Below are positions 3,890 through 57,059 of a DNA stretch of 64,000 nucleotides, in pieces. The DNA lies in contig NMRA01000760.1 in assembly GCA_002633005.1 (NCBI GenBank), positions 92,100 through 156,099 of the forward strand. Direction: 5' to 3'. Made by a program: the position numbers and the translations under genes. Positions within the stretch are counted from its first letter, which is position 1, and every line of letters starts with the position of its first letter. Source of the stretch: Phoronis australis. Its lineage: Eukaryota > Animalia > Phoronida. The notes beneath the pieces are model-generated. The model was not told where the DNA came from. It did not search any database and saw nothing but the letters and a program-made list of their open reading frames with translations.

Positions 3890-6800
3890 CTGAAACCAAG
3901 AAAGAATACAACTTTGAGGTTGAGATCCCTTTTCTGTAAAGACGTTTTTGCGATTTTTCATTATAAAGCCCTGAAAGAAATAATCATATCTTTCTTCATC
4001 GCATTTTTCTCACAGTAAATCAACATTTGCTTCAACAAAGTTTGGTTTCTAATTTTGTGTTCTCAAAAAGGTAAAACTATTCCTCAACTTTCCAGGAAAA
4101 GATACCGCTGTATACTCATGTAAATCGAGCGTTCAAAACTGGTCCGACGAAACAGATATACTGGTAGAGCTCTTAACGATCACAAACAATTGAAGTAACC
4201 CCTTGTGAGACACTTCTTGTCGATGGAGGTTCAGCTAGAAGAACAAAGCACTGGGAGAAATTAACCACCATTTTCATCTAACAAGAGGGGTATTTTATTT
4301 CTCATTCGCCCATCTAAAATTATCCAGTTGCAAGGCAATTAGATATATGTTAAAAATTCAGGGGCTCATTCGAGGAGTTTGGGAGGGTTAGTCAATCGAA
4401 TCCCATGGAGGCAAGGTACAGAATGGATTCGGAAGGAGATGAAAGATGATTCGTGAAACAGGATGTAATTAGCTGTAGAAAGCTGAGCTAGGATAAGAGT
4501 TTCAAGGTAGTTTCCTATCTCCTCAAAAGAGAAAGCGTGGATGTAGATGAACGAAGGCATTTCCACGGCGACCGCGGCTGCTGGAGTGGTAAAGACCGCA
4601 GAATTCATTTCTTCGGTCTACTAAACCTAATACAGAACCTTCGCAATGAGCCTTGCATTCATCAAAAGGCTTAGAGTTGTTACGGCAATGGAAATTCAAG
4701 GTCATGTGGCCTTGTTTATCACAAAGACTTGCTCGATTGACTTTTTATACAAAAACATCTGATATGAATGTTCAATGTATAGCGGAAAATCGAAGCATCG
4801 AATCCTATGGAACGCATAAAACGTCCATGGTCACCAGGCGACAGGGAGGAGGTCCTTGAATCTGATAACACGCATCAGTTTTCGGTGTTCCTCCTGAAAT
4901 CTAAACGCTGGGTAGCTCGCTTTCAAATGAAAGTTCAGATCAATACCTGGAGTACACAGCACTGTGCACGTGGAAAAAAAACAAAACCTCATAAAAGCAA
5001 GAGAAGGCAACAAATATGAGGAAGGCAACTGATAGTGAACTCGTACATGAGTACTGGTCGACATAAGCCACAACTAAGGTTAGTAAGACGGAGCAGATAA
5101 AACGAGTAGCTGCACTGCCGGTACATGTCAGTATATGGTGAACGCCATCAATCTACTGTACTAATTTTACCTGCCACGTGGGATGTGAATAACTGCAATA
5201 GAACAATATTGGCATTGAAAAAGTTTCTTGGATTCTGCGCGACATGACATTCCATAGCTCATAACTGTAAAAATCTTCTTGGGTATACACCTGTACGCGT
5301 TGCAGCGTACATACGCTGAAGTGAACGCTTTCTGTCCACATGTCAACTCAAATACGCCCTTAAGTGAGGCGTGACCGAGAGTTAGGAAGCGAGCTGTCTG
5401 TCATAATTGAACCAGATAGCTGAGCTGTCATCTCACCTGGGGGTGAGAATAATTAGTTCAATGAATTGTGATCGTATTTTCACGCCTTGACGAGAGGTGT
5501 CAGCACAGCTATGGTTACTTGAGGCAGGTTGTAGCTCTACGGCTGTGGTCTCAGTAAGAGCTGCAGTTGACAGACTGGGAAGCTAGTGCCTCGAAAAATA
5601 GATGACACGTTTACTACTAGGACACTGGTGACATCTGATACATAAGATTTTATTTACTTCTTAAAATCCCCACACACCGCTAGTAGTTAGGGAAGTAGAA
5701 AACTTCACAATGGAATGACTCAACTTTGCGGAAGCAAAATTAATCTTCTCGTTCAAGCAAAGAGTCGGCCTCCATTCGATCCATGGAGCCACCGTGTGTA
5801 ATTTTGAAGCCGTATCAAGTGCCACCAACACAACTTACCTTCGAACAGCGACGTTAAAGAACCAACGCAAAGGGTTCCAACCCAAACATGAACCAACCCG
5901 ATGACTTTGAAGGTTGGCTATGCATGGCACTTAAAGCTGTTATAAATCCGCCTAGGTGTCCGTCAAAGAAACTTTTGATTTAGATCACTCCTCGTTATAA
6001 AACTAGGTTAAGTACCGAAGACCGCAAGACATTAGCTTGCACTTGAGAAAAAACATCTTCGCTTATGGAACGGAAACAGTGAGTCTAATCCCACAATGCA
6101 ACACTCCAACCCCAAAGACCTATGATTAGGGGCGGCCATTTTGCTAGGATAGGCTAGCAAGCGGTTAGTTATTGCGCGAGACCATTCTCGGCGAATAAAA
6201 CGACACGCGGTGACAAGTCTACATGTTGAGCCTGGCCTTCAGCAACAACCAGCTGTGAGTTCTCTCGAAGCACTGAAATCATCATATTTTGTGATGGAAA
6301 GTGGGTTAAACAACCGATTCAATACAAATTTTCACAGCATTATTTTAGGGAAGTACATAACAGTTTTTCGATGTTAATGGCTTCATGGAAATTAGCATTG
6401 AGTTGCTCGCCTCATATTTTCGGGATCGAGCTAAAAAAGAAAAGTCAAAACCGGAACCGAGAGTTGCAGTAACAAGAGAACAAACACACGTCTGTACATA
6501 CATCAGTGATTACAAATGAAGTCATCATTTTTACCAACAGTCATGAAACATATCGAAACAATTGCAACATTTATTCATTTCACGTTACTCTAGCTAATTC
6601 AAGCACCCACAACCATGCCTATACAAATCATCTACAAAATTAATAAGCACTGGCGTAGCCAGTTTTCAAACTGATGAGAGCAAACGAATAAATGTTACGA
6701 CCTAAAAACTAAAACAGCGCCTCCACGAGGGTCTTTTTTCGATGAATTGGGGGTCCAAATACAAAGTTAAAATGCGTATCAACCGGGGGAAGACTTGTTG

Positions 6801-9800
6801 TACTCGTATGGCTACGCCAGTGCTAACACGTTTGTCGTCACGTGATCTACACATGCATCAAACCACATGACGCCAATCATTTCAAAACTCTAAAATGCAG
6901 TACACTAAAAGATGATTTGAAAATAAATTTGTTCGACCTTTGACACGAAGACTACTCACATTTTGCTGGGTCTGATTTTCAATGCTTAATGTTTGCTAGA
7001 AATCAAATGGTTCTCAACTTAATTTCAAGTACTCAATAAGTAGGGTTAACTTTTCTTTTGATCCTTATGTTTCAGCTTGAGCCGCCTGTTATAGATTGGA
7101 TGTTAAAATCTATGACTTGCTGACATAGGTGTTACATTATCTTCTGAAAGGACTAAGGAAGGGTTGACGAGGTGTGAAGGTTGTGGTAGGATGTTTAAGT
7201 CTGTTAAAGAAAGAAAGATCCATCAGACAAAGATGAAGTGTATATTAACCAATGGTAAGCGCTCGGGTTTACCCGATAACTCGTCGGAGTGTGTCGACCA
7301 GGAGACAAACCACCGTGTCAAACAGAATTCTGATCCTGAGAGTGGTAAAGGTAGAAGAGCTAGTAAGTGGCCGAAATCATCTGATAAACAGGTAAGGCTG
7401 GACATGGATACGGATTTAAGCATTAATTTACACACAATTAAAGACAGTGCAATAAGGAAAGTTCAGGTGCTGGGAAGTATGACATGTGACTATGGTACTC
7501 TGAAGTTTGGTGAGAAAGAGCAAAGGCAAAAGAAACAATTTCTTCCAAATCAAAGCAGGAGGAGGACAACCCAGTCATTAAGGAAGGAGGCGAGGAGACT
7601 ATGTGCAGCCATGCAGCAGAAGGTTCATAGAGCTGAAGAGATTGGAGTACTGCTGAGGGATGTGAGAAGACAGATTGCTAATCTGAGTAGACCAGAAGGT
7701 CCAGCTGAAAAGCGCCGCCGGTCTGCAAAAGCAACAAAAGATTTCACTGAGAATCCTTTCCATGTCACGAAGCAGCTGTACAAAGAGAAGACTAGTGGTA
7801 CTCTCACTGTGTCTCAGGAGAGATTGGAGGAACACCTGGAGTCGGTATACTGTAATGAGATGAAGAAGTCTGTCCCAGAACCAGTGGCTGATCTGAGTAA
7901 GCCGTCTGCTCCTACATTTCTGCTTGATGAGTCAATGGTTAAGATGAGGTGAAGGAGGTCATCAGGAAGGCAAGAAGTAAGTCAGCAGGAAGACCCAATG
8001 GTGTAACCTATGCAGTGTATAAGAACTGTCTTAAGTTGGTCTCTTGTATGTGGAGCGCCTTGGTTAAGGTGAGGGAGAAGGTGGATATACCTGAGTCTTG
8101 GTGCAAAGCAGGAGAAAACTCTACTGAGTTAGGTCAGTTCAGACCAAGCTCTTTGTTGAATATTGAAGGAAAGATCTTCTACACAGTCTTGGCAAAGAGA
8201 TAAACAAGATTACTCTCGGCTAATGGATTCATTGTCACCAGCATTCAGAAGACCGGTATACCAGGATTTCCTGGGTGTCTGGAACATGTTGTATAATCTG
8301 GCCAAAAATTAGGGAAGTCAAGAAAAATAAGAATGACCTGCATATGATCTTGCCAATGCTTATGGATCTGTTCCACACAGCATGCTGAGACTGGCAGTGG
8401 AGCTTTTTCATATTGCACAGAGGTTGCAAAGTTGCTTAATGTTGTATTTTTGATCAATTCAAGATTCGTTTCACCACAGCAAAGTATACAACAAAATATT
8501 TGAGCCTGCAATGGGATGTGCTATTTCAACTATCCTATTTGTAATTGTAATGGAGATGATTATTAGAGGTGTCAATGAAGAGCAGTGAGGAACTTCCAGA
8601 GGAAGGTGAGATCCAGGGCTTTATGGATGACCTAACAATCTTGCAGGAGATTGCGTCTGTTGCAAAGAGAGTTTTCCAAAGACTTACTGAGTTAATTGGC
8701 TTGAGAAGAATGGCTTTCAAACCCAAGAAGAGCACGGTGTTGTCATTCAGAAAGGGTGCTGTTGTGAACTTTGACTTTGGCATTACAGGAGAAAGAGTTC
8801 CAACTGTGCGTGAGCAGGGAGTGAAATGCTTAGGAAGGTGGTATAGTTTCCCACTTGCAGATCGTCATCGAGGAGTGGAATTACAGCGACAGGCAGAGGG
8901 TGGTTTGCTAAATATCCATAAATCAGGCTTGTCAATGACCAGAGACAATTGAGCGTAAGATCGGCGAAATGGTGAGAAAGTGGCTTGATTTATCCAGGAT
9001 TCTCTCATCAGCAGCATTGTACAGTAAGCAAAGTAAGTTGCGTTTACCAATTACATATGTTGTAGAGGAGTACAAGGCTGCAAAGGTCAGGCTGCAATCT
9101 ATGCTGTGTGAATTGAATGATAACACCATAAGAGACAAACCACCAAAGCTAAATATTGGTAGGAAGTGGAAAGTGAGTGAAACAATGAACACTGCAAGTG
9201 AGATGGCTCATCAGAAGGAATTTGTTGGTGTGGTGAGAGATGGTAGAAGAGGTATTGGAGTGACACAAAGGGAACATTTTTGGTCTGAGACAAAGGGGTC
9301 AGAAAGAAGGAAACTACGTGAGCAAGAAGTCCGGCAAATGGAGGAAGAGCGTCGTTCAGTGCTTGCTGTGCAACAGGCTCAATAGGGACTGCGGCTGAAT
9401 TGGGACGATGCGGAGCTGCAGGTCATCAGCTGGAACGATTGGCAGAGTATGAGTGCAGGTCATCCGAAGTTTCTCATCCAGTCAGCACATGATATATTGC
9501 CATCACCTGCCAGTTTGGTGAAATGGGGCTTTCGGACAGATTCTTCTTGTCGTTTTTGTCATAGAATTGGTAGTTTGAGACATATGTTATCTGACTGCAG
9601 TAAGGGGCTCACGTGCGGATGGTATACTTTCAAGCACAATTGGGTACTAGATGTTATACTAGAAGCAGTTGAGTGTGCAGTAGTTTCATCCAAATAATGT
9701 CAAAAGATAAATTTCGTCAGGCAAGGGGTTGCAGTTACGAACAATGTTAAGAGACCAGCTGCTACCAATAGGCATTGGACGGTTCGAATAGAGAAGTCCC

Positions 9801-12800
9801 TTCCAGAGGGATTGCTCCTGTCTGGTTTGCGTCCCGATGTAGTGTTGCTCGATGAAGTGAGAAAACTTCTTGTTAATGGTGGACTAACAGTTGCATGGGA
9901 AGAGGGTTTCTGGGAAGCCCATGAACGTAAGCTGTTACGGTATGCAGAATTAGCAACTGAAATCCAGGGGAAAGGTTACAACTGTGAACTGATTCTTTTT
10001 GAGGTGAGGGTGTCGAGGTTTTCCGTCTTCGTCTTTATGGAGGTTCCTGAAAGTCGCCGTTGTGAACCATTCTAGGATGGTGCATGGTCAGAGTGTGTGG
10101 ACAGAAGGCTGTGGAGGGCAGCACATGGATTATGCGGAAGTACATGTAATATAGTCATTAAAATGGAGTTAGGACTTTATGGCCAACTGCAGCGCATTTA
10201 CATTGAGCAGCTGTTGCTGGCCCACCGTGTGGAGAGATCCTGAGCTTAATGGGCCGAAATCTTGAGGACGCACTGCGCTCAGCTGATGATTGCAGTTGAC
10301 CGTGGAGCACAATCATCTATCACCTAAGTCTTCAGTCGGAGTAATTAATAGGCTGGGTCTGATCTATCCTACGATGTGAGGTAGCCGTTTTAAGAAAAAA
10401 AACAGTAGTAAGAATAATTAGAGTCAAAAAATGACTGATTTTCATGATACGTACTCACAATTTCAGAAGCATAGTTTACGAACTGCTTTGGACTCCTGCT
10501 ATTGATATAAAGAACAAGTGAACTCAAGTTTGAAATGTTTAGTAACTTTCTGTTTCAGTTTGGTCTCTTAAAAATGGTTTTAGATAAACTAATAAAAGAG
10601 ACATTTTTAAGCCCATTACCTAAGATGGAAATCACGAAATAGCTATGTCAAAGGTACATGGGCAACCATTGTCTCCAACATCTCCAGAGCACTAAATATT
10701 AATGAGCAAACCAAACATCGGTTCAGCGAGTTAGACTTTCCTACAGTATGTTAAAATGTACTCTCGTACATGGACCTACAATTGTCAGCTTTCTACAATT
10801 TTGTGAACACTTCATGTGAAAATGAAAGTCTTCAGTTAAAATGTTGCAAAGAAGCTAAAATTTCTCATTTCACGGATTGTCATTTCTGTTTTTAAGTCAA
10901 AAAATTATAGGTCTTATAACTTTCTATGAAATCTGAAAAATGTCGGATATTTTATGCTTCGGCTTTGTTTAAAGAGACTCTAAATCCGCCTTCCTTAAAA
11001 AGCCCATTTGACTAGAATACTTTGCACTATAAATCTGGTCTTAAATTTTCTTTACTCGGGTTCGAGACAATACTTGGGCTTGTTTGATAACATGCTCGAT
11101 ACGTTGGTTTGTACACTGCGTGTCACTGATTTTATGCGTCAAGTACACGTATAAAGGCCTTAAGCACTGCTTATCTGTCAGTATATCAATAGCCTAGAAA
11201 TCATTCTTCATCTGAATAAGGAACACGCTACGACCAAATTGAAAGCGGAAACCATCTAACTCAAACGTTGGATTTAACGTCCAAAGGCGTGTTCATAGCC
11301 GCCTTAATTAGGCCAATGCCCGCACAGCTTCTTTCAGGACCGAGGTTTTGTTCCCTGAACTCGAAACGTGATTCCACACGACTATTTAAAAATAACTTAA
11401 TCTCATTTTAAAAAATAGAGTGCAAAGTATCTGAAAAAAGCCCCGGTTACCGAGACAATTTCTATTTCTAAACTGTGATCCAATCGTAATTGGATAAAAC
11501 GTTTTTCACTAATTATGAAGTGCGAGAGTAAGACCAAACTCACGTCTAAGTCTTAAGCCACTATTTCATGCTGCAGGCCCCAGTATACGATTGGCAACGT
11601 TTACGGCTTAGGAAATGTTGCCGTAGAATTGAACCAGAGTCAACATTAAGAGATTTTCAAAAAAGAAGAGGAAATGAACTTTGTCAAAAACGTAAAAATG
11701 TGGTTAAGTGTTCGGGTTCACAATTTATTTTCAGAGGCGCTGAATGATATTTTTGGCTACAAAACAAACTTGCATTAGCATTTACGATCAATGCCTTACA
11801 AAGGATGACTCTGGGATGTTTGATTAGAAAAATTTTTCTCAATGAGACATCATTCGAGTAACAAATGAACGCGAGGTTCAATTTGACCCCGGTCGACTAA
11901 GTTGAATTCCGTAACTAAAGGTACACGGACGCGTACTTGTAAGTCTAGTCTTCGCCGAATGGTCAAATGAGTCATTTTTATGCAAGGGAGAAACACCTGA
12001 ATACTGTACTATTTAGGATACCAAAGAAAAGTGAAACAGGCAGTATGTAATACATGTACAAATCATATAAAGTTGACTGTTATTAGAAATAGAGTGAGTG
12101 CACTCTGTGTGAAAGGAGACACGTGAGAGACGGTACTGCGGTCACCCGATACAATGTACGCGTGCATTCTCCAGTTTTCGCGTGCCTACTGACTGACTTT
12201 ATTTGTATATTTACAGATGCATGTTTTCTCGGACTTTTTGTTTCTCTGAGGCGGACGTTGTTACCCATTTCGCCAAATGAGGGGTTCGTTCGAACCCCCG
12301 AGCCACCCCCCACCCCTTGGGTGCGCGCATGCATACAGAAAATGCTTAGTGCCTAGATCACGTTTTCCGGAAATGTACGAATACAGTACCGAGTGACCCT
12401 AGAAGAGGCAATGAGTGCTAGAAAACTAAAGAATATCAAAACACAATTTACCCAACGTTTCCTTGTACTGAATGTCTGTGAATAAATATATCCGTGGTTT
12501 ATATTTCATAAGGAGTTCTACTGCAAAGGAGCTTCGTGGCAAATCGGGAAGGAAACTATTTAGGAAATGAAAACGAAACAAGACTAAGAAGGAATCCGAT
12601 TATCTTTACAACAATAAATATTTCTGACATCAAAAGCTCATCGAAAGTAGAAATACATAGCTTTGATCATACCGCAAAGCAATTTAAAATTTGAAATTAT
12701 ACAAGTAAAATAGTTCATAATTTAAACTGTATATTTTCACTTGCGAAAAAGGTTTCAAAATAATTGCAAACAAATTCAGTATAAAAAAGTTCAAAGCTCT

Positions 12801-15800
12801 TAAGTTTGTCTAAAGAAGTACAACAATGTTGTGAAGTACTTTACACCGTACGCTTTGTGCTCGTCGAACGGGCGTCTTATAACGTCATTCTATTGGAAAA
12901 CTTCACTGTAGCAATGAACAAACATAAGAATTCAGTGATAATACCTTTTGGGTTTATCTTTTCTTCCGGTTCATCGTTTTCGTGGTTCCATGTGGGTTCA
13001 ACGTCATCTGGCATGTCTTCCTTAGGTGGGTCGGCCCACGGCTGTTTCTCGCCGGAAGCGAATATGGCGTAAAACGTGACACCGATGTAGTGTATAAGGG
13101 CAGCTGCCAGAAATACTTTCTGCCATTCTTCGGCAGTCTGAAACAATGGATAAAATATAATGTCTCTGAAACTCGGTCAGCGTTCTGTAGACCACAAGAC
13201 ATGATAAGATCCAAATGGTCATAAACATAGGTCTCCAATTAATCTTGCAAATTAAATGGTCAGGAAAAATAACCACTGAAACTGTTGGAACAGAGAGAGA
13301 CAGATTAAGAAGCAAAAGTAGAGGTGGGTCGGCCACACACTGAGAAAGCCGGGATAAGGCAACGAAAGCGAGGAGGACCTATACAAAACTGGTGAAGAAC
13401 TGTCAGTCTTATCACCTCTCCATCGGTATGTCGCGGAACGAGATTCGAGTGAAATCTGCCAACAGGACTAGATGGTGAACAGTCACGGAGTTATGCTCCT
13501 CACGGTAGGCCATCCAGAGGGTTAAGTCAGAAGTGACCATGCTAGCTTGCAAGGGGACATTGAATTCAGCGGACTCTCTCTGTTCGTCGGTGCTATAGGC
13601 CTACAGGCTGAACAACTTCATACCAAAAGAATGGAGTGGTAGCCTAATTTTATCCCCCGAAGATGCATTCAGCAGCTTTATATGTGCCAACTGAAGAAAA
13701 ATATGACACAATGTGGATTCGAACCAGACTGCCAACCATCAAGCTTCCACTCGTCATTCTTGCTCTGACCAAAACATATACTGCGCGCTTGTTGACGTGC
13801 ATGTACTAAAAGAAACACGTGTTATACGAGGTCATGCTGATGGGGTAAAACGTCGTCTTCTTCTCCTCTTTGACTTCCGCTGCTGTCTTCTCAAATTTCT
13901 ATAAACTCAGTGGCATTTGTTTTTGCATAAGTTTTAATGTCAGTGGCGGATCTAGGATATCACAAGNNNNNNNNNNNNNNNNNNNNNNNNNNNNNNNNNN
14001 NNNNNNNNNNNNNNNNNNNNNNNNNNNNNNNNNNNNNNNNNNNNNNNNNNNNNNNNNNNNNNNNNNNNNNNNNNNNNNNNNNNNNNNNNNNNNNNNNNNN
14101 NNNNNNNNNNNNNNNNNNNNNNNNNNNNNNNNNNNNNNNNNNNNNNNNNNNNNNNNNNNNNNNNNNNNNNNNNNNNNNNNNNNNNNNNNNNNNNNNNNNN
14201 NNNNNNNNNNNNNNNNNNNNNNNNNNNNNNNNNNNNNNNNNNNNNNNNNNNNNNNNNNNNNNNNNNNNNNNNNNNNNNNNNNNNNNNNNNNNNNNNNNNN
14301 NNNNNNNNNNNNNNNNNNNNNNNNNNNNNNNNNNNNNNNNNNNNNNNNNNNNNNNNNNNNNNNNNNNNNNNNNNNNNNNNNNNNNNNNNNNNNNNNNNNN
14401 NNNNNNNNNNNNNNNNNNNNNNNNNNNNNAACACTAAAACTGCACACATTTAAATCTTTTTTCATCCGTATAATTTTAATTACCGGGGTTAATTAATAAA
14501 CTCAACGTTTCCCTACGCTCTTACTGTTTTTTTTTGCGGCAGCCAAGAGGGGGGGGGGCCCGGGCCCCCTGGGCCCCCCCCCTAAGTCCGCCTATGTAAT
14601 GTAGAACTCGGTGAAACTAACCTTAGCTGGCTTCAGCACTTCACGTTATACAGTGGTTACTATGTGTCACGAGGGTTCACCTTGACTATTACTTTGCTGG
14701 GGAAACGCAGGATTTGAGTAACCATGATGGTTGAACCTCGGGATTCGCCTCCCTCCTATGGTGGACGTGGTTGGTCGATACAAGTGTGGCGGCATCCGGA
14801 GACCGGGAGGTGGGGGGAGGGGGGGGGGGCAGAGGTGGATAGTAAGGGGGCTGGGGATAGTTTGACGAAATCGAATTGGTTTGAGCCTCCCCCCAATAAT
14901 TTTTACCGTCCTGCGGGCCTGCGTGAAACCGAGGTAGGCTGCCACGCCCTACTTGTCTTAAAGCGTCCTACAATGAATTTTTGAGGTTTTAGGCCGTACA
15001 TAATAATTTCATAACACAAAATTTAACTAAAGACTCACTTATTTTGAGAAATAGTTGATAAATTTTGATTTTTAAAAAAATGAGTTTTTTGGTTCCCCGC
15101 CACGTGACGTCATCAGTGGAAGACGTTGATCAGTTGACAGTATATTTGCAAATGCGGGAAGTAGTGGTTTTTTGAAGATTTAGAGAGCGAGCTTGACGAG
15201 TATTATGAAGACACGCATGGAGATGAGGGTGTTTGAAGCTGTACGAACTCGACCCTCTCGCAACTGCGTCTTCGGCCAGTGAATCATGGTTGTAGAACTT
15301 ATGCCAAGTTATGTAACACGATGGTGATTTTTACGACCTTTCTGCTAAATTTGAAAACCCGCACGTGGTCTACTATTAAAATGCTGCACATGTAACTTAC
15401 GCCGTTTTTTGTCAAAGATTCCGTGACAAACGGGCAAATAAGTCCGGAGAGAGTGCCGACTCCATTGGAAATACCCATCAGTATACTGGCGTATCGAGGT
15501 GCAATATCCAGGTGATTGACGTTATAACCTGCAAAATAACGAAAGAAAGTCATCTTTGAAATTACGAATTTCAAAGCAATCGAAAGAAAAACAGCCGCAC
15601 GTGTAAGAACCCAACTGCGGTTTTAAAGTTGTTAGTACAACCTTAGTGATAGAACAAAGTCCAGAGTGCGCTGAAACTTCAGGAAACATAGTTGAGTCCT
15701 TTTGGGAGTGTTTCGTGCAACCGGACACAAGAGCCTTTTATGAGTGCGGACCGTTTTTGTGAGTCTTCGAAGTTGAATTACTGGTAAGTGAGTCGTCTTC

Positions 15801-33800: not shown

Positions 33801-36800
33801 TTGTTCTTCAAAACACTGTTAGGAATGTTCCACTTCAAAACACTGTTAGGAATGTTCCACTTCAAAACACTGTTAGGAATGTTCCACTTCAAAACACTGT
33901 TAGGAATGTTCCACTTCTGCTTTGTGAGAATCAAAAGGACTTACGTTATTTTTGTGTAAAATATTAATCTGCATCATGAAAATGACACGATCCCTTAAAA
34001 AGCCGTAACAGCTTTTTTGAGATTTTATCTTGAACGTTTATATCATAAGACATTTTTTGTAATATTGATCACGTTGTTTTGCTAGGAATGTATCTTTATT
34101 TTTTGCTAAACTTTTCCATTTGGTCACGTGATCTAATTAGTGTCAGAATGGCACAAATTTTCGAGAATTCATACTTTCAGAAAAAAAGTACTTTTACTGA
34201 GTTGAATTATACTGTTTTGTAGATAATTAGGTAAACGTACAGACTTGTTGATAAGGTCCAAGATAGCCTCAAGCTTGTCACAGATCGATTTTAAGGCAAA
34301 TCAATATATGTGTCAGTTTCCAGTTTCAAGACTCAGTTTTAACTGAATTATGAAAAAAAAATACATGTGCCAGTTTTCAGCTCAAAAGCACAACTCAAAA
34401 TGAATTGAATTGAAGAGTTGATAAATACATCGTAGATGATCTTCAGCGTAAAATCAAAACAAGGACAATTTCGGAATCATATCCACGTTTAAATTTACAA
34501 TACTCTTGTTCATGTAAAATGTACTTCAGAAGTGATGACACATATAGTGGCCGGCTATGTCATCTCCTTTCACGACGATCACGTTTGCTTAGACATAAAA
34601 ACCTCCGCGGGATGTTTTCACTGCTACCTAGACATTTTGGCCACACTTAACACATTCAGTAGTTTACCAGCACGTGAATACTATCACGTTTTGATGCAAC
34701 CTGTATTTATTTGAAATAATTGATTTCGCCTACGGGTTATAAATTGACTGACTTTGTCATCTGAACAGTCAACTAAGTGAAGAATAATACTTGTATAATA
34801 TTTGTAACGTGCAATTTATTTATGCTGTCTGTTTTGACAATGAATGTTGAACCCCCTGGATAGTGTGCGTGATCATTAGTTAGTTAGTGCACAGCCAGCT
34901 AATTATTGTAACTGCTGTATTGGCTTATTAACTAACGGGTTATAGATCGCACGAACCAGTGTGACAATTAACGTGATTCACTGTGCACGTAGGCTATTTT
35001 AAGATTATGTAGAACCATAGAAGAATGTCCAAAATGGATGATCGGATTCACTTTCACATAGCACGCCTTATACACTGCTCTCTAAAACTCTAAAAGTGGT
35101 TTTTAAATATTCCACTTTTCCATGAGGGGCTATCAAAAATAGGACTTATATATTTTTTTCTGAAACATTTGCATAAAACAAAAATGATAATTTAGAAATC
35201 TGAAAAAGTATTTTTGAGATTTTACTTTGCCGATTTATACAAATATATTGTCATTTGATTGACCATGTTATTGAGCGAGAATTTTACCGTTTTTCCTAAA
35301 AAGCAAGGCCTCGTGACCTGATTAGAAGCAGATTGGTATAAAGTCAAAAATCTAATTTTATGGAATTTCTACTTGCAGAAAATAACTACTGTTGCTGAGT
35401 TAAATTCTATTGTTTATAGGCACTTAGTTAAATGTACAGACTTGTCGATAAAATCATGCAAAGGCTTAATGAATCCTGTACAGCAGTATTATGTCAAAAC
35501 TCTCCATGTATATGCACTATGTAAGAGTTACGTAATATTCTCGTGCATCTCAGTGTCAGCTTTTGCACATTTTCTTCTACCAAAACAACTTTTACTGAGC
35601 AATCTTTTATGGAAGAATGGGCTTGGACAAAATATGGAATAAACGCAAAGGAAAAGACAATAGTTCTGCCGGATCATGTTCGAGTATATACAAATATCTA
35701 CAAAGGTCAAACGTTTCGATGACATTTCAGTAGGGCACTACAGGAACTTTTCAAAACATAAAATACCTTTACATGTCAGCAAAATTCAGCAATTCAAAAA
35801 CTCCGAGTTGACCAAATTAATAAAACGTGTTATTCTGACACGGCGTACGGAACCTTCACATTATGTAGTCACGTTTACGAACAATGCAGCGGTTTATTGG
35901 ACCGGGAAAGGATGGTGAGTACTAATGAGTGAAACGCATTATTTTGCTGTTGAATCGTGCTTTGCTGTGTCAGTTCTTGATTATAATTTCACTTATTTTT
36001 TGTGGCTTACTGGCAATTTCCGACTATGAGCACGTACAATGTATGTCGGTAATAAAATATACGACTAGGCGTATATTTATGGCAGCAGAAAGAGAGAATT
36101 CACAACAGCGACGTGGTGGTCGATCACGTCGACATGGTGACCGACAAGGTCGATAATTTCGACCATGACTGTAGCTTTTTATGGACAGTACCTTACATGT
36201 GCATGCCCGAGAGTATAACGCTGTTCCCCGTAGTTTTTTCAAAAATATATCGTAACAGGTACCGTTTGTTTAGTAAAAGATGGCAAAGTTACGCGTTTTC
36301 GATTGAAAATTTGATTTCATTTAGGTCTTACATCTACTTCCCTTTAAAATGGGGATTCACCAAGGCATTTTTTCCGAACTATGCGCTCCTGGCTTGTTTT
36401 TGGAATACGATCGTTACATCGCCATGCTGGGGCGGATTAACCATAAAGTTGACGAGGATGAAGCTTAGGGGTCCGGTAAGGCCCGGGACCTGGATGGACA
36501 GAGAAATTCCATGTCCAAAATTTGTGTACCTGTGACGTACTACTAAATATGATTTTCATTTCGCATCATAATAACCCAAAATTGAAGCGTTCAAATCCTC
36601 CACCAGGGGTCGCGTACTATTTTGAAAACAAGATGTTGAAATATGCTAAAACGCATCCCTGTGATTATTGCTGAATGGGATGGACTTTTTAAAGTTAAAT
36701 AGATTCGACCCGGACTATAATACAATGAAATCCGTTGTGATTTTTTGTGATTGCAATTCGACAATTCTAGCTGTCGTCAGCCAGACACTGGCTGAAATCA

Positions 36801-48800: not shown

Positions 48801-51800
48801 AGCACAAGCAAATGACCGATAACAGTTGGGTGTTTGAACACCATTGCGTGCGGGTGTTATTCGCAGCTGTTTGAATTAAAGCTTATCTTCAACGGTAACA
48901 CCTGTAAATTCGATTCCTACAGTATGTTAAGAGCATCGCTCTGAGCCCACTAGTGCCATGAATTGCCAAGTGTAACGAACTGTTAGGCGTATTAGCTTGC
49001 TTTTGTTTACGTCACCGCGAGAATCACCTTTTAATTCAAACAGCTACGAATAACCCCCGCATGCAATGGTGTTCTATTCAGTTTGTGCTGGGATCTGGTG
49101 ACGCAACATGGCACGAAAAGGCAGCTTCACCTATCATTTGACGGGCTTACATTTTCTTAATTGAACTCGCGTTTTCTTATTTTACTAAGGCTTTGCTGGG
49201 ACTATCTGGTTAGCCCAGTACATCTAAAATAGCGAAATTCCGCTGAAGTTAAGCTTTAAAAGGTGATTCGTGCGGTGACGTAGACAAAAGGTAGCCAATA
49301 AGCAAAATGAAGCTTTACATTTGACAATTTGTGGCACTACTGGACTCAGAGCGACGCCCTGAACATACTGCAGGATCCAACATGTACAGGTGTTACCATT
49401 CAATATATAGTCTTTAATAACCATTATTCCTTTACATGTAAATCCAGTTAAGATTAATTTGCAAAGTTTTTTTATTTTTACGTATGTATAACAAATAGAC
49501 AAAACAGCGGTTTGAGGTAACGTCGGGTAACTCTAAACAGGTGTAAAACAATGTATTTTTTCATAAGGAAATGCGCTGCTCTAAAGTGAAATCATAAATA
49601 ATACCCGCATTTCTCTCAAATTCCAATGCCCCGATTCAATTAGACTGAGGATTAGAAGCATGGATTCAGTTTACGCAATTGATTATGAGATAATCCGTTG
49701 TGATTAACGATGCTGATCACTGTCTCATTGCCATCATTAACGAAGTTCACCCTTATTAAACAAAGCAGAGGGGATCAGTACAGTTTAACCTGCTGCTTCA
49801 ACTCATTAACCTTGGTCATTAAAAAGCACTTATCATGACAACCTGGATGGGATTAACAGTAATTTTGAAAAAATAACGAATATTGACTAGTAAAAAAGTA
49901 ATGAAGAAATGTCGGACCACAAATTCGTTAATGATTTGTCGCTGATTTTCCTTCAAAGTTTTCGACTTAACTTTATCGATAATAGAGACGATTTCGACAT
50001 GATATTGTTATTTTTCCTTCAATAGTACGTTTTAGTAAGTCATGCAAGTAAGCAGATACACGCACGTTTTGTGAATCGACCACGTTTCACTTGTGTAGTC
50101 TCTGTACTACTCGTGGATAACTAATTCGAGTACAACGTCAAAATGTCAACAAGATGATAAAACCAAAACTAAGCTAGGGTCGCACGGTTCTTTCACTTTT
50201 ATTTTGCACACTTCAAATAAGAACTGGCAATGTTCTGGAATACAGTACATTTAGTTACTTTGCTTTAAGCGAGTTCAGAGTTTGAGACTGAGTCGATTTT
50301 AAAGAAAGCGTGTATTCAATAACACCACCAAGAGACATTTGTAAAGTTTAAAAGGACGGCTGTATTTCAACATAACCCATTTTCATTCAGAAACAATTCA
50401 GTTGAAAATCTTCAAAAGTATAAAATTTAAAATTGCTTTTTGCAACAGTTGTTAACTAATACAGTCGGCTTCGAGATGCAATCGGAGATTATTGTCGAAA
50501 TGCAATCGGGGATTATTGTTGAACAGGGTACAGTTTCCGAAGTAATCATAGTTATAAAACAACCCCGTCGTGTTTTCACGATTTTATTCGAATTTACCTA
50601 TTCCCGATGTTGACTTTCTTTCAGTTCGGCGGTACCCGTGGTTGAGTAATTGAAACCGAGGCGCTGACCTTATTAGCTACTCTTTGCGCAATGGAGAAAA
50701 GCGATGAACGCCGACGTGGTGATATTCAAAGTCAACGCAAGAATACCAAGAAGTCTGCTCTCCTGAGTCCATATGAACGCCGACGTGGTGGTATTTAAAG
50801 GCAACGCAAGAATGCCAAGGGCTCTACTCTCCTGAGTCCATGCTGTTCAATCAACGGTCCTTATTAATTTGACACTTTTTTGAAATTCTGCGCACTTCGT
50901 ATTTTTACAGTAATAAGAACATGTACATAATATGTCGTAATTATCCGATCAATCACATGTTAAGTCATGCCACATACTGTTACGTTTATATTAACTTGAG
51001 AATTAGGAACACTTCCAGAAAGCTAGATTTATTCCTTTCTGAACACCCTGTGTTCGTGGATTTGGTTAAATGCTGAAACCACAAACAGTCAACAACTTCA
51101 ATATAATACAAAATAGACAAACTTGCAAAATATGTTCACCTATATAGCAAAAATTTTAGTTGTGAGAATAAAGGTATTTTTCTGTCTTATTTTGAAATAT
51201 TTTTGTCACCTTTTCCCGTTGTTTTCTATGCTCGATGATCTCTTTACGTTCTCCTGTCCCGACGTTCCCCAAATCAAAATTCCCAGGCCTCAATGTTCGA
51301 TCTTCCCTATGGCTCCTTGGCTTAGTGCCAGTTGGTTCTGTTATGACTTGCTGTATAGCGGAGTATCATGCGCTTTTGTTAGTCGTTTATTAAATTATAT
51401 AGCAAAACTTTTATGTTCATCGATAAACATGTACTGTATTCTGGACATATTTGCTCGTGCTAACAAAAGCATCTATCCTGCTCCGAGCGATGGAATATTT
51501 TATAATGGTGCTTATTTGAAAGTTGGAAACAAAAATTTTACAGCCATTTGGCGGCCTTTTCTTTCTCTTGCAGACTAGTTATGAATCCATTGCCTTATCT
51601 AAAAGTCGAAATGTTTCAAAGGCGAAAAAAGATGGAGTTGTCTTTCTTCTGTGATTAGTAGACTCAAGTGGGCTTTTGGAAATGACGTTCAACCATTGAT
51701 TTCTCTTGTTTCAATGTACACTCTCAAATCCAGAAGTAGACTGTGCTGCTTACTTGTCGATTTCAAGAATGCATTTGATAGTGTTCGGCTAGATGGTTTG

Positions 51801-54800
51801 AACTACAAACTATTACTTTATAACTAAAAAGGAAAATATACAGCATTTTACAAGGTTTTATGACAGGAAACAATGCGCGTGTTCAAATCAATTACACAAG
51901 TGTCAAAGCTGAGTGTTTTGAATGTGCAATTGGGATGAGACAAGGTTGACAATTGTCACCTTTTCTATTCTCCTTGTTTCCAATGACAAAGCATAAAACC
52001 AGGAATCGACATTGGAGTTAGGGCTGGTCTATTAATTCTTTATTATTTAATATCCCCTGGTGATTTACTGGTATTTCCTGGAACTGCAAGAGGTATACAA
52101 AGAAAAAGTTATCAATTAGTACATATTGTAAATAAGGTGTACAAGAGCTGTCCAAGATTAGCCAAGACTCTGTGGAAGCTGCCAAGAGTTGTGTGGAGAA
52201 GAGGAAGGTTAGCTGAAAGTTTTCACAAAACAAAAGTATGCTTTAATTCAAAGCAAAACTAGGCGAAAGGCCTGCAGGAGTTCAGGACAATATTTTTGCT
52301 GAATGTTGAAGGGAAGATCTTTCTGGCGATAGCGGCGGGGAGGATGGCAGAGTTCATGATAGCGAACAAGTATATCGACATAGCAGTGCAGAAAGGAGGC
52401 GTTCAAGAGATCTCGGGATGTATCGAGCATACAAGTGTGGTTACCCAGATCATCAAGGAGGCTAAGGAAAGGAAAAGGAATCTGGTTGCACTAAGGCTTG
52501 ATCTGGCGAATGCTTATGGTTCAATACCACACAAGGTAGTCATGTACCAGAGGCGGTAAAAGGAATGTTACGTGGCTACTTTGACAAAATCAAGATGAGG
52601 TTCTCTGTGGGTAACTATGTTACAGCGTGGCAAAGATTGAAGGCGGGGATAATAACAGGATGTATAGTGTCTGTGATACTGTTCGCAGCAACGATGAACC
52701 TACTTGTGAAATCAGTGAGCAGAGAACCATTCATGGAGTCAAGGGTCAGACAACCACCGACGAGAACATTTACGGATGACATGACTGTGACAACCAAGTC
52801 TTATATAGAAGGGAAGTGAGCACTGGAATACTTAGAGAGAATAATTGCATGGGCACGGATGAAGTTTAAGCCGGCAAAGTCAAGGAGTCTAGTGCTTAAG
52901 GACGGTAAGGTGGCAAATGAGAGATTTCGGCTAGGCGACGACGTAATACCAACAGTGGAGGAAAAACCAGTGAAGAGCCTGGGAAAATGGTTCTACTGTA
53001 CTCTCAAAGATGTTGTCAGCGTGGCTGCCATCAAAGGTCAAGTAGAAAACTGGATGACGGCAGAGGATAAGTGTAGATTGCCAGGCAAGTTTAATGTATG
53101 GGTTTACCAGCATAGAGTGCTACCTAGGGCACAAAGGCCATTATTGGTGTACAATGGTCCGACATCAACAGCAGAGGTAGTAGAGCGTCTAGTGAGCTCC
53201 TTTCTACTTAGGTGGTTGGGTGTACCAAGGAGTTTTAGCAGTGTAGGATTATACAGCACTGGGTCCAAGGTGCAGTTATCCATCACATCGCTGGTGGAGG
53301 AGTTTAAAGTCGGGAAGGTGCGTCACGAGTTAACTCTGAGGGACAGCGCCGACGAAAAAGTGCGAGGAGCCAGATTCAGGGTCGATGTAGGAAGAAAGTG
53401 GCTAGCATCACAAGCAGTCAAGCAGGCAGAGGAAAGACTCAGGCACGATGATATAGTAGGCACAGTGGCAGTGGACAGACAAGGACTTGGTTTGTTTCCA
53501 CAGGCACGTTGGGGAAAAGCGAGTCCTAAGGAGAGACGTAGAATGGTACAGCAGCAAATGAGAAGCATGAAAGAAGAAACAAGAAGAGCCAGAGCAGCAG
53601 GCATGAGGAAGTAAGGCAGTTGGTTGAATTGGCAGGGAGTTAGACAGAAGAGTTTGAAGTGGCAAGAGATCTGGACAATGCAGGAAAGTAGACTAAAGTT
53701 TTTGCTGAGGTCTGAGTATGATGTNTGACCAAGCATAAAACCAGGAATCGACACTGGAGTTAGGGCTGGTCTATTAATTCTTTATTATTTAATATCCCCT
53801 GGTGATTTACTGGTATTTCCTGGAACTGCAAGAGGTATACAAAGAAAAAGTTATCAATTAGTACATATTGTAAATAAGGTGTACAAGAGCTGTCCAAGAT
53901 TAGCCAAGACTCTGTGGAAGCTGCCAAGAGTTGTGTGGAGAAGAGGAAGGTTAGCTGAAAGTTTTCACAAAACAGAAGGATGCTTTAATTCAAATCAAAA
54001 CAAGGCGAAAGGCCTGCAGGAGTTCAGGACAATATTTTTGCTGAATGTTGAAGGGAAGATCTTTCTGGCGATAGCGGCGAGGAGGATGGCAGAGTTCATG
54101 ATAGCGAACATAGCAGTGCAGAAAGGAGGCGTTCAAGAGATCTCGGGATGTATCGAGCATACAAGTGTGGTTACCCAGATCATCAAGGAGGCTAAGGAAA
54201 GGAAAAGGAATCTGGTTGTACTAAGGCTTGATCTGGCGAATGCTTATGGTTCAATACCACACAAGGTGGTCATGTACCAGAGGCGGTGAAAGGAATGTTA
54301 CGTGGCTACTTTGACAAAATCAAGATGAGGTTCTCTGTGGGTAACTGTGTTACAGCGTGGCAAAGATTGAAGGTGGGGATAATAACAGGATGTATAGTGT
54401 CTGTGATACTGTTCGCAGCAGCGATGAACCTACTTGTGAAATCAGTGAGCAGAGAACCATTCATAGAGTCAAGGGTCAGACAACCACCGACGAGAACATT
54501 TATGGATGACATGACTGTGACAACCAAGTCTTATATAGAAGGGAAGTGAGCACTGGAATACTTAGAGAGAATAACTGCATGGGCACGGATGAAGTTTAAG
54601 CCGGCAAAGTCAAGGAGTCTAGTGCTTAAGGACGGTAAGGTGGCAAATGAGAGATTCCGGCTAGGCGAAGACGTAATACCAACAGTGGAGGAAAAACCAG
54701 TGAAGAGCCTGGGAAAATGGTTCTACTGTAATCTCAAAGATGTTGTCAGCGTGGCTGCCATCAAAGGTCAAATAGAAAACTGGACGACAGCAGAGATAAG

Positions 54801-57059
54801 TGTAGATTGCCAGGCAAGTCTAAAATCACTCATATTCGTGCAAAGTGAGCATGACAATACCTGGCAGCCACGCGATCCCGCCCAACAGGGTTGTCGACGG
54901 TCATTGGCTTAGCAGATTTTTTTTGTTGATAAATAGCTTCTGAACAAGTGTCGCAGAGTACTCAGCGGAGCTAAAAGTCGTGTAATTTTGTTCAACGTTG
55001 TGCATTTTATTTGTACTTCATTTCCGCCGATTCACTTTAGACAAGGCAAGGTCTCGCAACGCAACTGTTGGATACTTTGGTTATGTTTTTGACAAACCAG
55101 AGGTATCTGTACGTTTAGTGGTTCAAACTACAAAATTGGTGTAATACATTAAACAGCATGTTTATCGCGTAGACGGTGTAGCTGAACGTAGCACAAATCT
55201 GTTAGTCTATCTACCATCGGAACCTTTGATTGTTGTGGGCTCATTAGTTTTTCGGTTGTGCTAAAATGATAAACGAAAACCAGAATTGCCACATTTATTA
55301 CAATGTGTAATGCTTTTCAGCTGACGGTGACAAAGCGTTATGACATCGCTTTTCTGGAGCAAGTGGGGTACGTTTGATGGTCGCCAGGGGAAAATATTGA
55401 CGAACAAGCTACTTAAGTGGTAATTATTATGAATCATCATAACGATACCTTCTGATTTAATTACTAAAAATATCGAGAACTATACTCATTAACGATACCA
55501 ATATTAAAAAATACGGTAATGATAAGTGATCAGTTGGTGACGGGCAATCCAAAATATCGCCAATCAGACCTTTTGGATGTTTATGGCGATGGTGTGACGT
55601 CATCACATTCTAATTTTTGGCGACGAGTTGAGGCGTACATGTATGCCCATCTGTGTTCTGGCTGTGAATAAAATGTTGGGTATAAAGTGGATTGTGTCCG
55701 TAAGCACATGGTGCTCGCGGGAGAGTGTGTACGGTGAGAGTATGTCGTAAACAATATTTGATAGTTTTACTCTGCTCTTCATCAATGAATCCACCGCTTG
55801 AAGAACTTATAAAGTCACCCATGTGTGTCCACAAATTGCCGTTGCCCGCGTTTTGGACAATACCTGACATGAATGTTTTATGCCCTTCTGACAATAAACT
55901 CACTCATTGTGATTTTTATTATAAATAATGCAAACATGGATTGAGATCAGAGCAGCTGTGCACCAGATTACTAATAGCATTCTTCCCCTTTGTCAGCAGA
56001 AAGCATGCGCGCACCCAGCGTTCGATATGGGGGGGCTCGAATTCCCGACGTTGTGGACCATTTGCTAACAANCCGGGGCCGGACCTTTTTGCCCACTTTG
56101 CCAATTGGGGGGGAGGGGCTCGTTCCAGCCCCTCGAGCCCCCCCCCCGAGTGGGGGCATGGAAAGTGGGAAATTCTTGACAATTAATTCCCCATTAGCGA
56201 AAAAATTATTTAAGTTTTTGCAGATTTGATCTTGAGCAAAAATTCTAACCCTGAATGCAGAAGGTATACTTTTCTGTGATCCGTGGTAATCAAATTATGA
56301 AACAACTTAACCTCCTGTTTTGTAACGCTAGGACGTCGCTAAAAAGCACGACTTCGCGAGATTGCCGTGAGATATTGCTCTGTATTTTAAGTGAGAGCAC
56401 GTGATTTTGGACAGATTTCAGCTAGATCCTACTGTAGGTTTTAGCGCTACTGAACGCACGTCTGGTGTAATGATCTGTGTTGTGAAGTTTCTTCTGATTC
56501 TTTTTAAGAACATCTCAGTTCCAGTGAAACGAGTAAACGGAGTCGACTGAGAGAATGGAGTCGACTAAATAAACTGAGTTTTATTGTCAGTAGGTCAACC
56601 AAGGTGAGTGACAGTACCCGAAACGCGTCACACATTTGTTCTCATTTTACCCATTCTTTGCTTTTGCCACCATTTGAGGTTAACACACCATGACAGAGGG
56701 TTCAAATTTGGTACAATACACTGCTTTAGTCTATTGTAACAATGCGTTGCCCACTTTCGTATTGTAGTGCTCAAAATGGCTAGTTTGTCCAAATAGCAAT
56801 AAAGGTACTTTCACTGGGGTCAGTTATTATCAAAAGAATCATTTAAGGACTTCAACCTGAATACGATGTCTCACGTGACTTTGCACGAAAATGTTTAGAT
56901 TGAAAGCTGACTTCGCGTCAGCCGCGAACTTGTCAAAACCATTCAGTCCAGCACAAGTATCTGCACTGCTTGTGCGGGAGAGATATTGTCAATTAGCATA
57001 TTTATGCACCCACATATCTATATATTTTATATATTCATGCATTTGTATGCTTGTGTGTG

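Follow-up and report, generated by a model that had tools for sequence, protein, structure and literature searches.

A hammerhead-type fold with a predicted opening in its core lies behind the open reading frame of HERO-type retrotransposons

Can the core of a hammerhead ribozyme be opened by whole helices and nevertheless be conserved by a retrotransposon? The question is raised by a 64,000-nt stretch of Phoronis australis DNA (contig NMRA01000760.1, positions 92,100 to 156,099 of the forward strand), referred to here in its entirety as the window. In this window, a decayed non-LTR (long terminal repeat) retrotransposon, likely of the HERO clade, carries the invariant nucleotides of the hammerhead in the 3' untranslated region (UTR) behind its open reading frame (ORF). 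Judged by its sequence, the fold at positions 10175-10307 is of hammerhead type and presents the strand order S-G-C (the cleavage block first, then the blocks with GAAA and with CUGAnGA). A short linker connects stems I and II, a bridging helix is present, and the core is opened between nucleotides A9 and G10.1. That this conserved fold is real is virtually certain, and intact copies probably cleave after the NUH triplet, which ends at C10239 in the window.

A first reading of the window, made from the letters alone (the sequence-only reading), had named the invariant hammerhead nucleotides and five helices. All of these are present: stem III with 5/5 pairs, stems I and II with 6/6 each, the long helix P1 with 17/18 and a helix crossing stem I with 5/5. 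The core letters CUGAnGA, GAAA and NUH are those of a hammerhead, and stems I, II and III lie in register around them and covary. A descriptor of this topology was written after viewing the motif, which makes it post hoc where the window is concerned, though not where related loci are. It matched no dinucleotide-shuffled version of the 143-nt stretch in 20,000 trials. It matched two of 3,000 shuffles of 850 nt, with scores of 24 and 26 versus 32 for the motif. Across the whole window and both strands, its only other match lies at 57776 (score 25); lacking covariance-model support, this candidate was rejected as a chance match.

The conservation of the fold was evaluated on the best 80 of 315 confirmed related loci, obtained from 598 candidates in one metagenome scan and 24-44% identical to the query in protein. 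The strict descriptor matched the motif in 30 of the 80. Among the 59 loci with at least 150 nt after the stop codon, it matched 29 sense 3' regions, no antisense and no ORF-side region, and shuffles of the 3' regions of these loci yielded a single match out of 2,950. We also built a covariance model from 20 training rows, restricted to the nested helices and leaving out stems I and II. This model gave 52 matches in 82 sources, all in the sense orientation: the window, 48 of the 80 loci (29 of them outside the training set) and three extra copies at contig starts. The motif is placed behind the ORF and on the sense strand only.

In the model alignment, the paired share of cells is 93.7%, and both partners have changed in 33 of 35 pairs, among them all ten modelled pairs of P1. 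The stems that had been left out of the model pair just as well: 95.7% of cells are paired in stem I, where 4/4 pairs covary, and 93.8/86.6% in stem II. Slid controls, which ignore relatedness, gave 36-42%. A sequence-only alignment of 20 rows, whose limits were chosen from the descriptor, gave 87.0% paired cells and 33/38 pairs changing on both sides. We then considered the core in 47 full rows, excluding the three contig-start partials, the truncated L030 and the duplicate L056. NUH is kept in 46 rows (the cut position is G in one), GAAA in 42 and CUGAnGA in 44, two of which are misaligned by two columns in alignment A5. The closing pair G10.1-C11.1, which is G10219-C10255 in the window, is G-C in 38 of 48 filled rows and G-U in three. 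The catalytic letters are preserved while the stem sequences vary, and relatives present both the covarying crossing helices and the conserved core that the sequence-only reading had proposed to look for.

On a tree of 81 rows (quick method, midpoint-rooted, without named references), the motif is absent from one side branch of 12 rows, five with long tails and seven with short ones. The other 69 rows comprise 49 model matches, three cases recognized by descriptor or by eye, 11 rows that are too short and six without the motif; one of these six, L002, starts with the motif's tail. Rfam returned no hammerhead match at window positions 5000-15000, nor in the 20 of 81 loci that were searched, in agreement with the expectation that standard models would miss this permutation.

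The host element is likely a member of the HERO clade. Its single ORF combines a zinc finger, a reverse transcriptase (RT), a CCHC motif and a restriction-like endonuclease (RLE), the domain set of HERO-type elements, and has weak Pfam matches to RVT_1 and zf-RVT. In tblastn, the ORF matches intact RLE retrotransposon proteins piecewise (36-61%); with the intact relatives P0005 and P0001 the pieces fall in three frames, and nine in-frame stops lie across the P0005 matches. The RT rows of HERO-1_BF and HERO-2_DR (supplement of PMC5678591) closely resemble the proteins of the window family when compared by eye. The sequence-only reading had also proposed a HERO host, which these results support as likely. 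Those relatives that are named belong to fish, lancelet, molluscs and sea urchins. Three protein scans of viral contigs revealed no HERO locus; the weak RT match L001 lacks the C-terminus.

The strand order of the motif is not that of hammerhead types I, II and III, which share a three-way junction and differ by circular permutation. The sequence-only reading was right on this point, but the S-G-C order has already been published as type SGC by Eckert et al. (2023; PMC10085705). Type SGC (HRIMA-1 and variants) comes from metatranscriptomes only and cleaves in vitro at 0.007-0.19 per min; it is described in the sole paper on this type that we found in the open literature. The HERO motif shares with it the order of the blocks, the short linker between stems I and II (the TTAA of the window, correctly recognized at the outset), the bridging helix, the pseudoknots of stems I and II and the core letters. 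Eckert et al. assume that the CUGAnGA block tolerates no interruption beyond 1-2 nt, and their descriptors build on this. In type SGC, the stem II strand comes 0-1 nt after CUGAnGA, whereas the HERO motif has this strand on the 5' side of the cleavage block, and A9 enters a separate clamp helix, P1. None of the 47 rows fits the unbroken block C of type SGC (CUGAUGAG or CUGAUGAUG followed by the stem II strand). Unlike type SGC, the HERO motif also completes a four-way junction with a further hairpin (hairpin B), ties its bridging helix to stem III on both strands, often with a k-turn consensus, and resides inside a retrotransposon in genomes.

The opening of the core is consistent across the alignment. 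A hammerhead joins A9 to G10.1 within 0-2 nt. No row here has a contiguous stem II of 3 bp after A9, whereas a split stem II of at least 3 bp lies upstream of the cleavage block in 40/47. In 31/47 rows the chain runs from A9 through P1 and hairpin B to G10.1 without a linker base at any of the three joints. As predicted from these sequences, a four-way junction of P1, hairpin B, stem II and the core opens the core between A9 and G10.1. P1 would stack on hairpin B and stem II on the core, which would keep A9 beside G10.1. The sequence-only reading had replaced stem II by two helices and left 10193-10218 as a loop. Neither proposal holds: stem II is the 6-bp helix 10219-24/10250-55, the 18-bp helix belongs to the four-way junction, and 10193-10218 forms the overlooked hairpin B in most copies. 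A viroid hammerhead tolerates one extra base between A9 and G10.1, a point for which our literature search gave no confirmation.

How the bridging helix reaches stem III is a geometric puzzle left open by Eckert et al. (PMC10085705). In the HERO motif, the 3x6 purine loop in which the sequence-only reading had overlooked a match fits the standard k-turn (PMC4382518), in which two helices flank a bulge of 3 nt and the G.A and A.G pairs that come after it; here this is a prediction from sequence. The consensus is found in 27/47 rows, including the window. According to the rule in PMC4382518, the 3b-3n pair would permit folding in ions alone in 17 of these 27 rows, whereas four rows, the window among them, have C-G and would not fold in this way. 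Most copies of the species have A.G at this pair. A bend at the predicted k-turn would carry the bridging helix back towards stem III, to its far end. Some subfamilies (L021, L026, L036, L053, L056, L060, L062, L065, L054, L038 and L064) present a plain one-sided bulge of 2-6 nt instead, a natural substitute for this bend, which suggests that the k-turn is one solution and not a requirement.

We file the motif as a hammerhead variant because the core letters and stems are those of a hammerhead while the contiguity of types I-III and of type SGC is broken. What is new is the opening of the core, the four-way junction, the k-turn consensus and the HERO retrotransposon host. The sequence-only reading had suspected a variant not yet described; the order, the linker and the bridging helix turn out to be known, and the opening between A9 and G10.1 is the undescribed part. 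In the open literature (subscription papers, Repbase Reports and bioRxiv supplements being outside this scope), no paper joins hammerhead, HERO and retrotransposon. The coordinates of the window copy are given in Table 1.

Table 1. Host ORF and predicted elements of the fold in the window copy (window coordinates).
Feature	Position	Strand	Remarks
Decayed single ORF of the HERO-clade (likely) RLE non-LTR retrotransposon	7173..10143	+	zinc finger at the N-terminus, then RT, CCHC and RLE
P1 5' strand (clamp helix)	10175..10192	+	pairs with 10290-10307; 17/18 pairs
Hairpin B, between P1 and G10.1	10193..10218	+	weakened in window copy; 4/4 modelled pairs covary
Stem II 5' strand GGCCCA	10219..10224	+	pairs with TGGGCC 10250-55, 6/6; G10219 is G10.1, not contiguous with A9
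Bridging helix 5' strand (interaction 'I' of Eckert et al.)	10225..10230	+	pairs with 10270-10275; 6/6 pairs covary
Predicted k-turn, non-bulged strand	10231..10233	+	3n, 2n, 1n are G, G, A
Stem III 5' strand GAGAT 10234-38 and NUH triplet AUC 10237-39	10234..10239	+	pairs with ATCTT 10259-63, 5/5; predicted cut 3' of C10239
Stem I 5' strand CTGAGC	10240..10245	+	pseudoknot with GCTCAG 10277-10282, 6/6 pairs
TTAA linker, stem I to stem II	10246..10249	+	short linker like type SGC (PMC10085705)
Block G: stem II 3' strand, GAAA 10256-59, stem III 3' strand	10250..10263	+	
Predicted k-turn, bulged strand	10264..10269	+	bulge of 3 nt, followed by G, A and 3b; C at 3b where most copies have A
Bridging helix 3' strand	10270..10275	+	one mismatch in window copy, at 10274
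Stem I 3' strand and CUGAUGA core strand (CTGATGA 10283-89)	10277..10289	+	
P1 3' strand	10290..10307	+	begins immediately after A9
Terminal hairpin 5' arm; final part common to other copies	10307..10321	+	3' arm missing from window copy

Other copies of the same species were compared by aligning contigs from two DNA runs, and RNA reads, to positions 10140-10340. Most copies have G in place of T10274 (319.6/338.7 and 420.5/446.8 of contig depth in the two runs) and A in place of C10269 (301/309 and 378.5/386). In these copies the bridging helix is 10225-30/10270-75; the crossing helix that the sequence-only reading had drawn as GTGTG 10227-31 with CGCAC 10269-73 does pair 5/5 in the window, but its register is not the common one. 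Most copies also form the hairpin at 10193-10218, with pairing letters that differ from the window at 10192, 10197, 10198 and 10218, and the majority letter at 10299 repairs the sole P1 mismatch. In the window, 10203-10208 can pair with the 3' strand of stem I, a competitor that the letters of other copies at 10204 and 10207 abolish. The nested minimum-energy fold of the window copy is a different one that buries the core (z -2.16); nested folding cannot represent the pseudoknots of the motif. Finally, 11 contigs per DNA run continue beyond 10321 with a common sequence unlike that of the window, which indicates that the window copy lacks the last bases of the element. Its core letters are intact. 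The window copy is decayed, may misfold and probably cuts poorly; its departures from the majority letters at several paired positions make it ill-suited as a test construct.

What would the element gain from such a fold? The sequence-only reading had proposed that it processes the 3' end of HERO RNA. This is too simple, as copies in genomes extend far past the cut: in all nine pairs of related loci compared, 74-240 nt after the predicted cut are shared (three cut positions are our estimates), and copies within the species share at least 82 nt. In addition, the ribozyme is followed by a 5' UTR and the N-terminus of an ORF in 4/32 tails (L005, L018, L020 and L023). Contigs L009, L017 and L019 start with a second copy of the ribozyme, 92-99% identical, contig L002 begins with a ribozyme tail, and L014, L047, L054 and L050 continue into 5'-UTR sequence; three contigs wrap around. 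In some copies, across the tree, the ribozyme and its tail stand directly before a 5' UTR. Since elements end 74-240 nt past the cut and often abut the next 5' UTR, simple 3'-end trimming is unlikely, and we infer that a clamped or circular template with internal priming fits better; whether such a template is used we regard as evenly balanced.

The following steps could produce these arrangements. RNA transcribed across a junction would be cut into unit-length pieces, whose ends would stay clamped or ligate into a circle. Four helices (33 bp in the window copy) connect the sequence before the cut with that after it, and they may hold the two products together, favouring re-ligation or a template jump. 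The HERO protein would then prime just after the terminal hairpin, downstream of the cut, and reverse transcription would cross the cut and sometimes copy past its own start, yielding head-to-tail junctions as in Penelope-like elements. It is possible, and we hold this larger proposal more tentatively than its parts, that an ancient, clade-wide hammerhead with a split core and a k-turn scaffold lets HERO long interspersed nuclear elements (LINEs) replicate through a self-cut, rejoined, circular and internally primed RNA.

Several known systems offer partial parallels. Penelope-like elements (PMC11167929, PMC6765202) are likewise autonomous retroelements with a hammerhead at the junctions of tandem or partial-tandem units and insertions that end downstream of the ribozyme. 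They carry a minimal type I hammerhead, a GIY-YIG nuclease and a telomerase-like RT, whereas the HERO ribozyme is a full pseudoknotted one and its host an RLE LINE. For the Penelope-like element PAc, both tandem structure and internal priming were shown (PMC11167929), whereas internal priming is only inferred for HERO. Retrozymes (PMC4918200, PMC7229834, PMC6155905) also have hammerheads in terminal or tandem repeats and a proposed circular RNA template, but they are non-autonomous, of type I or III, and their circles have been shown while those of HERO are only proposed. R2 and L1Tc (PMC6765202, PMC7650587) are non-LTR retrotransposons with a self-cleaving ribozyme, and R2 also encodes an RLE protein; their ribozyme has the hepatitis delta virus (HDV) fold and cuts at the 5' junction, in contrast to a hammerhead fold behind the ORF. 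For catalysis itself, we count in favour of the HERO motif that SGC ribozymes, which have this strand order too, were shown to cleave in vitro (PMC10085705). RNA reads across the cut give a weak hint of cleavage in the form of enriched core-breaking letters: G10285A is present in 4/13 reads (X6) and G10256T in 7/10 (X8), compared with about 3-4% and 0 in DNA contigs.

A number of results weigh against cleavage, the architecture or the proposed template. The linker-free junction is missing from 16/47 rows, of which six gave no junction and ten, including the window, had other offsets; the strict k-turn is missing from 20/47. In the motif-bearing clade, five loci with tails of at least 300 nt (L037, L039, L041, L049 and L077) yielded no motif. 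We found no tested precedent for an opened core in the open literature, and PAc could dispense with its hammerhead for insertion in vitro, where the hammerhead cut only with the help of protein (PMC11167929). Collapsed repeats can also give rise to head-to-tail joins when contigs are assembled from short reads, so that such contigs do not distinguish between arrays, terminal repeats and circles. No ribozyme half is present upstream in five loci whose genomic flank lies close to the ORF start, and L009 alone starts near the cut (cut+2), L017 and L019 starting 23-27 nt before it. Four RNA read alignments of 12-35 reads each, unstranded, fragmented and of low depth, show no pile-up of read ends at the cut, and the enrichment of core-breaking letters rests on about two loci and on individuals other than those of the DNA runs.

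The main rival is that the motif cleaves as a 5'-processing ribozyme like the HDV-like ribozyme of R2, freeing the 5' end of the next unit in an array while the element's own 3' copy, slow or blocked by protein, stays uncut. This would account for junction contigs in which the ribozyme immediately precedes the following 5' UTR, for elements ending beyond the cut and for the start of L009, and the low rates of SGC ribozymes (PMC10085705) agree with it. However, the 5' copies of L017 and L019 include the nucleotides upstream of the cut, and the four helices that span the cut would hinder product release; we consider this reading unlikely. Alternatively, the fold might be retained in the 3' UTR as a structure that binds protein for target-primed reverse transcription, with cleavage suppressed or incidental. 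The position just before the element end, the binding of proteins by k-turns (PMC4382518), the insertion of PAc hammerhead mutants in vitro (PMC11167929) and the RNA reads that span the predicted cut all speak for it, yet the catalytic letters and the NUH rule are kept across such divergent proteins while the stems vary freely, which makes it quite improbable. It is very doubtful that cleavage merely removes read-through 3' sequence and destabilises the mRNA as a copy-number brake without a template role: hammerheads are present in the 3' UTRs of Clec2 mRNAs (PMC6155905) and few RNA reads match intact cores, but the clamp helices and head-to-tail junctions would be left unexplained, and the cut would part the 3' end of the element from an ORF that copies retain with it. 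Finally, a chance arrangement of short motifs, for which one could cite the weaker match at 57776, the two matching long shuffles and the differing nested fold, is a negligible prospect, as it is already refuted by clade-wide covariation in both alignments, alongside the 0/20,000 shuffles and the sense-only model matches.

If our proposal of a self-cleaving, split-core hammerhead is correct, it would break the stated rule that the CUGAnGA block is uninterruptible, with a wiring outside the six permutations thought possible. It would extend non-circular permutations from metatranscriptome RNAs to retrotransposons in genomes, where plentiful copies are missed by Rfam and by the published descriptors, and the k-turn would suggest, in a form that can be tested, how the bridging helix comes to meet stem III. 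Should the template be clamped or circular and internally primed, a LINE clade would depart from textbook 3'-end priming, with a bearing on the spread of HERO elements and on R2-type gene insertion tools.

Additional features were observed near the ends of the elements. In many loci, P1 is followed by a hairpin ending TGT-AT close to the 3' end of the element, a candidate signal for the priming site; a search for this terminal hairpin succeeded in 24/44 cases but had no control and includes distant chance hairpins, so that this count carries little weight. The 5' UTRs of nine loci (L002, L005, L009, L014, L017, L018, L019, L020 and L023) open with repeated hairpin-like units (GGAAAGAC, GGAGAGAC and CAGTGAC), which adjoin the previous 3' end directly. 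Upstream of the window ORF, neither a ribozyme half nor such a repeat cluster was found. In L003, L005, L007, L022 and L045, and in L016 where it is cut short, mostly within one subclade, a tRNA-like segment with patterns that we take to be an A box and a B box lies directly upstream of the ribozyme, 10-100 nt past the stop codon. ARAGORN and Rfam made no call on these segments, which could be a Pol III promoter for a short ribozyme-containing RNA or the head of a short interspersed nuclear element.

Some relatives encode an additional domain, either an N-terminal PF02902 (Ulp1-type protease; P0004, P0080-P0096) or PF00443 (ubiquitin hydrolase; P0077, P0100), and the reading frames of the motif-less L037 and L039 extend further past the nuclease domain. 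A resemblance of 10332-10350 to L064 was not significant (E 0.26) and was discarded. Elsewhere in the window, a second, more distant HERO-like RT remnant at 52137-54741, in the stretch 51984-54823, has neither a 3' end nor the motif. This stretch contains a 1.1-kb direct duplication (51984-53094 and 53726-54823, 96.8%) with an N at 53725. Further repeats, dispersed or inverted, measure 80-240 nt with 77-93% similarity and lie at 1622-1856/26219-26457, 12223-12333/42311-42414, 48875-49418 and 34156-35451.

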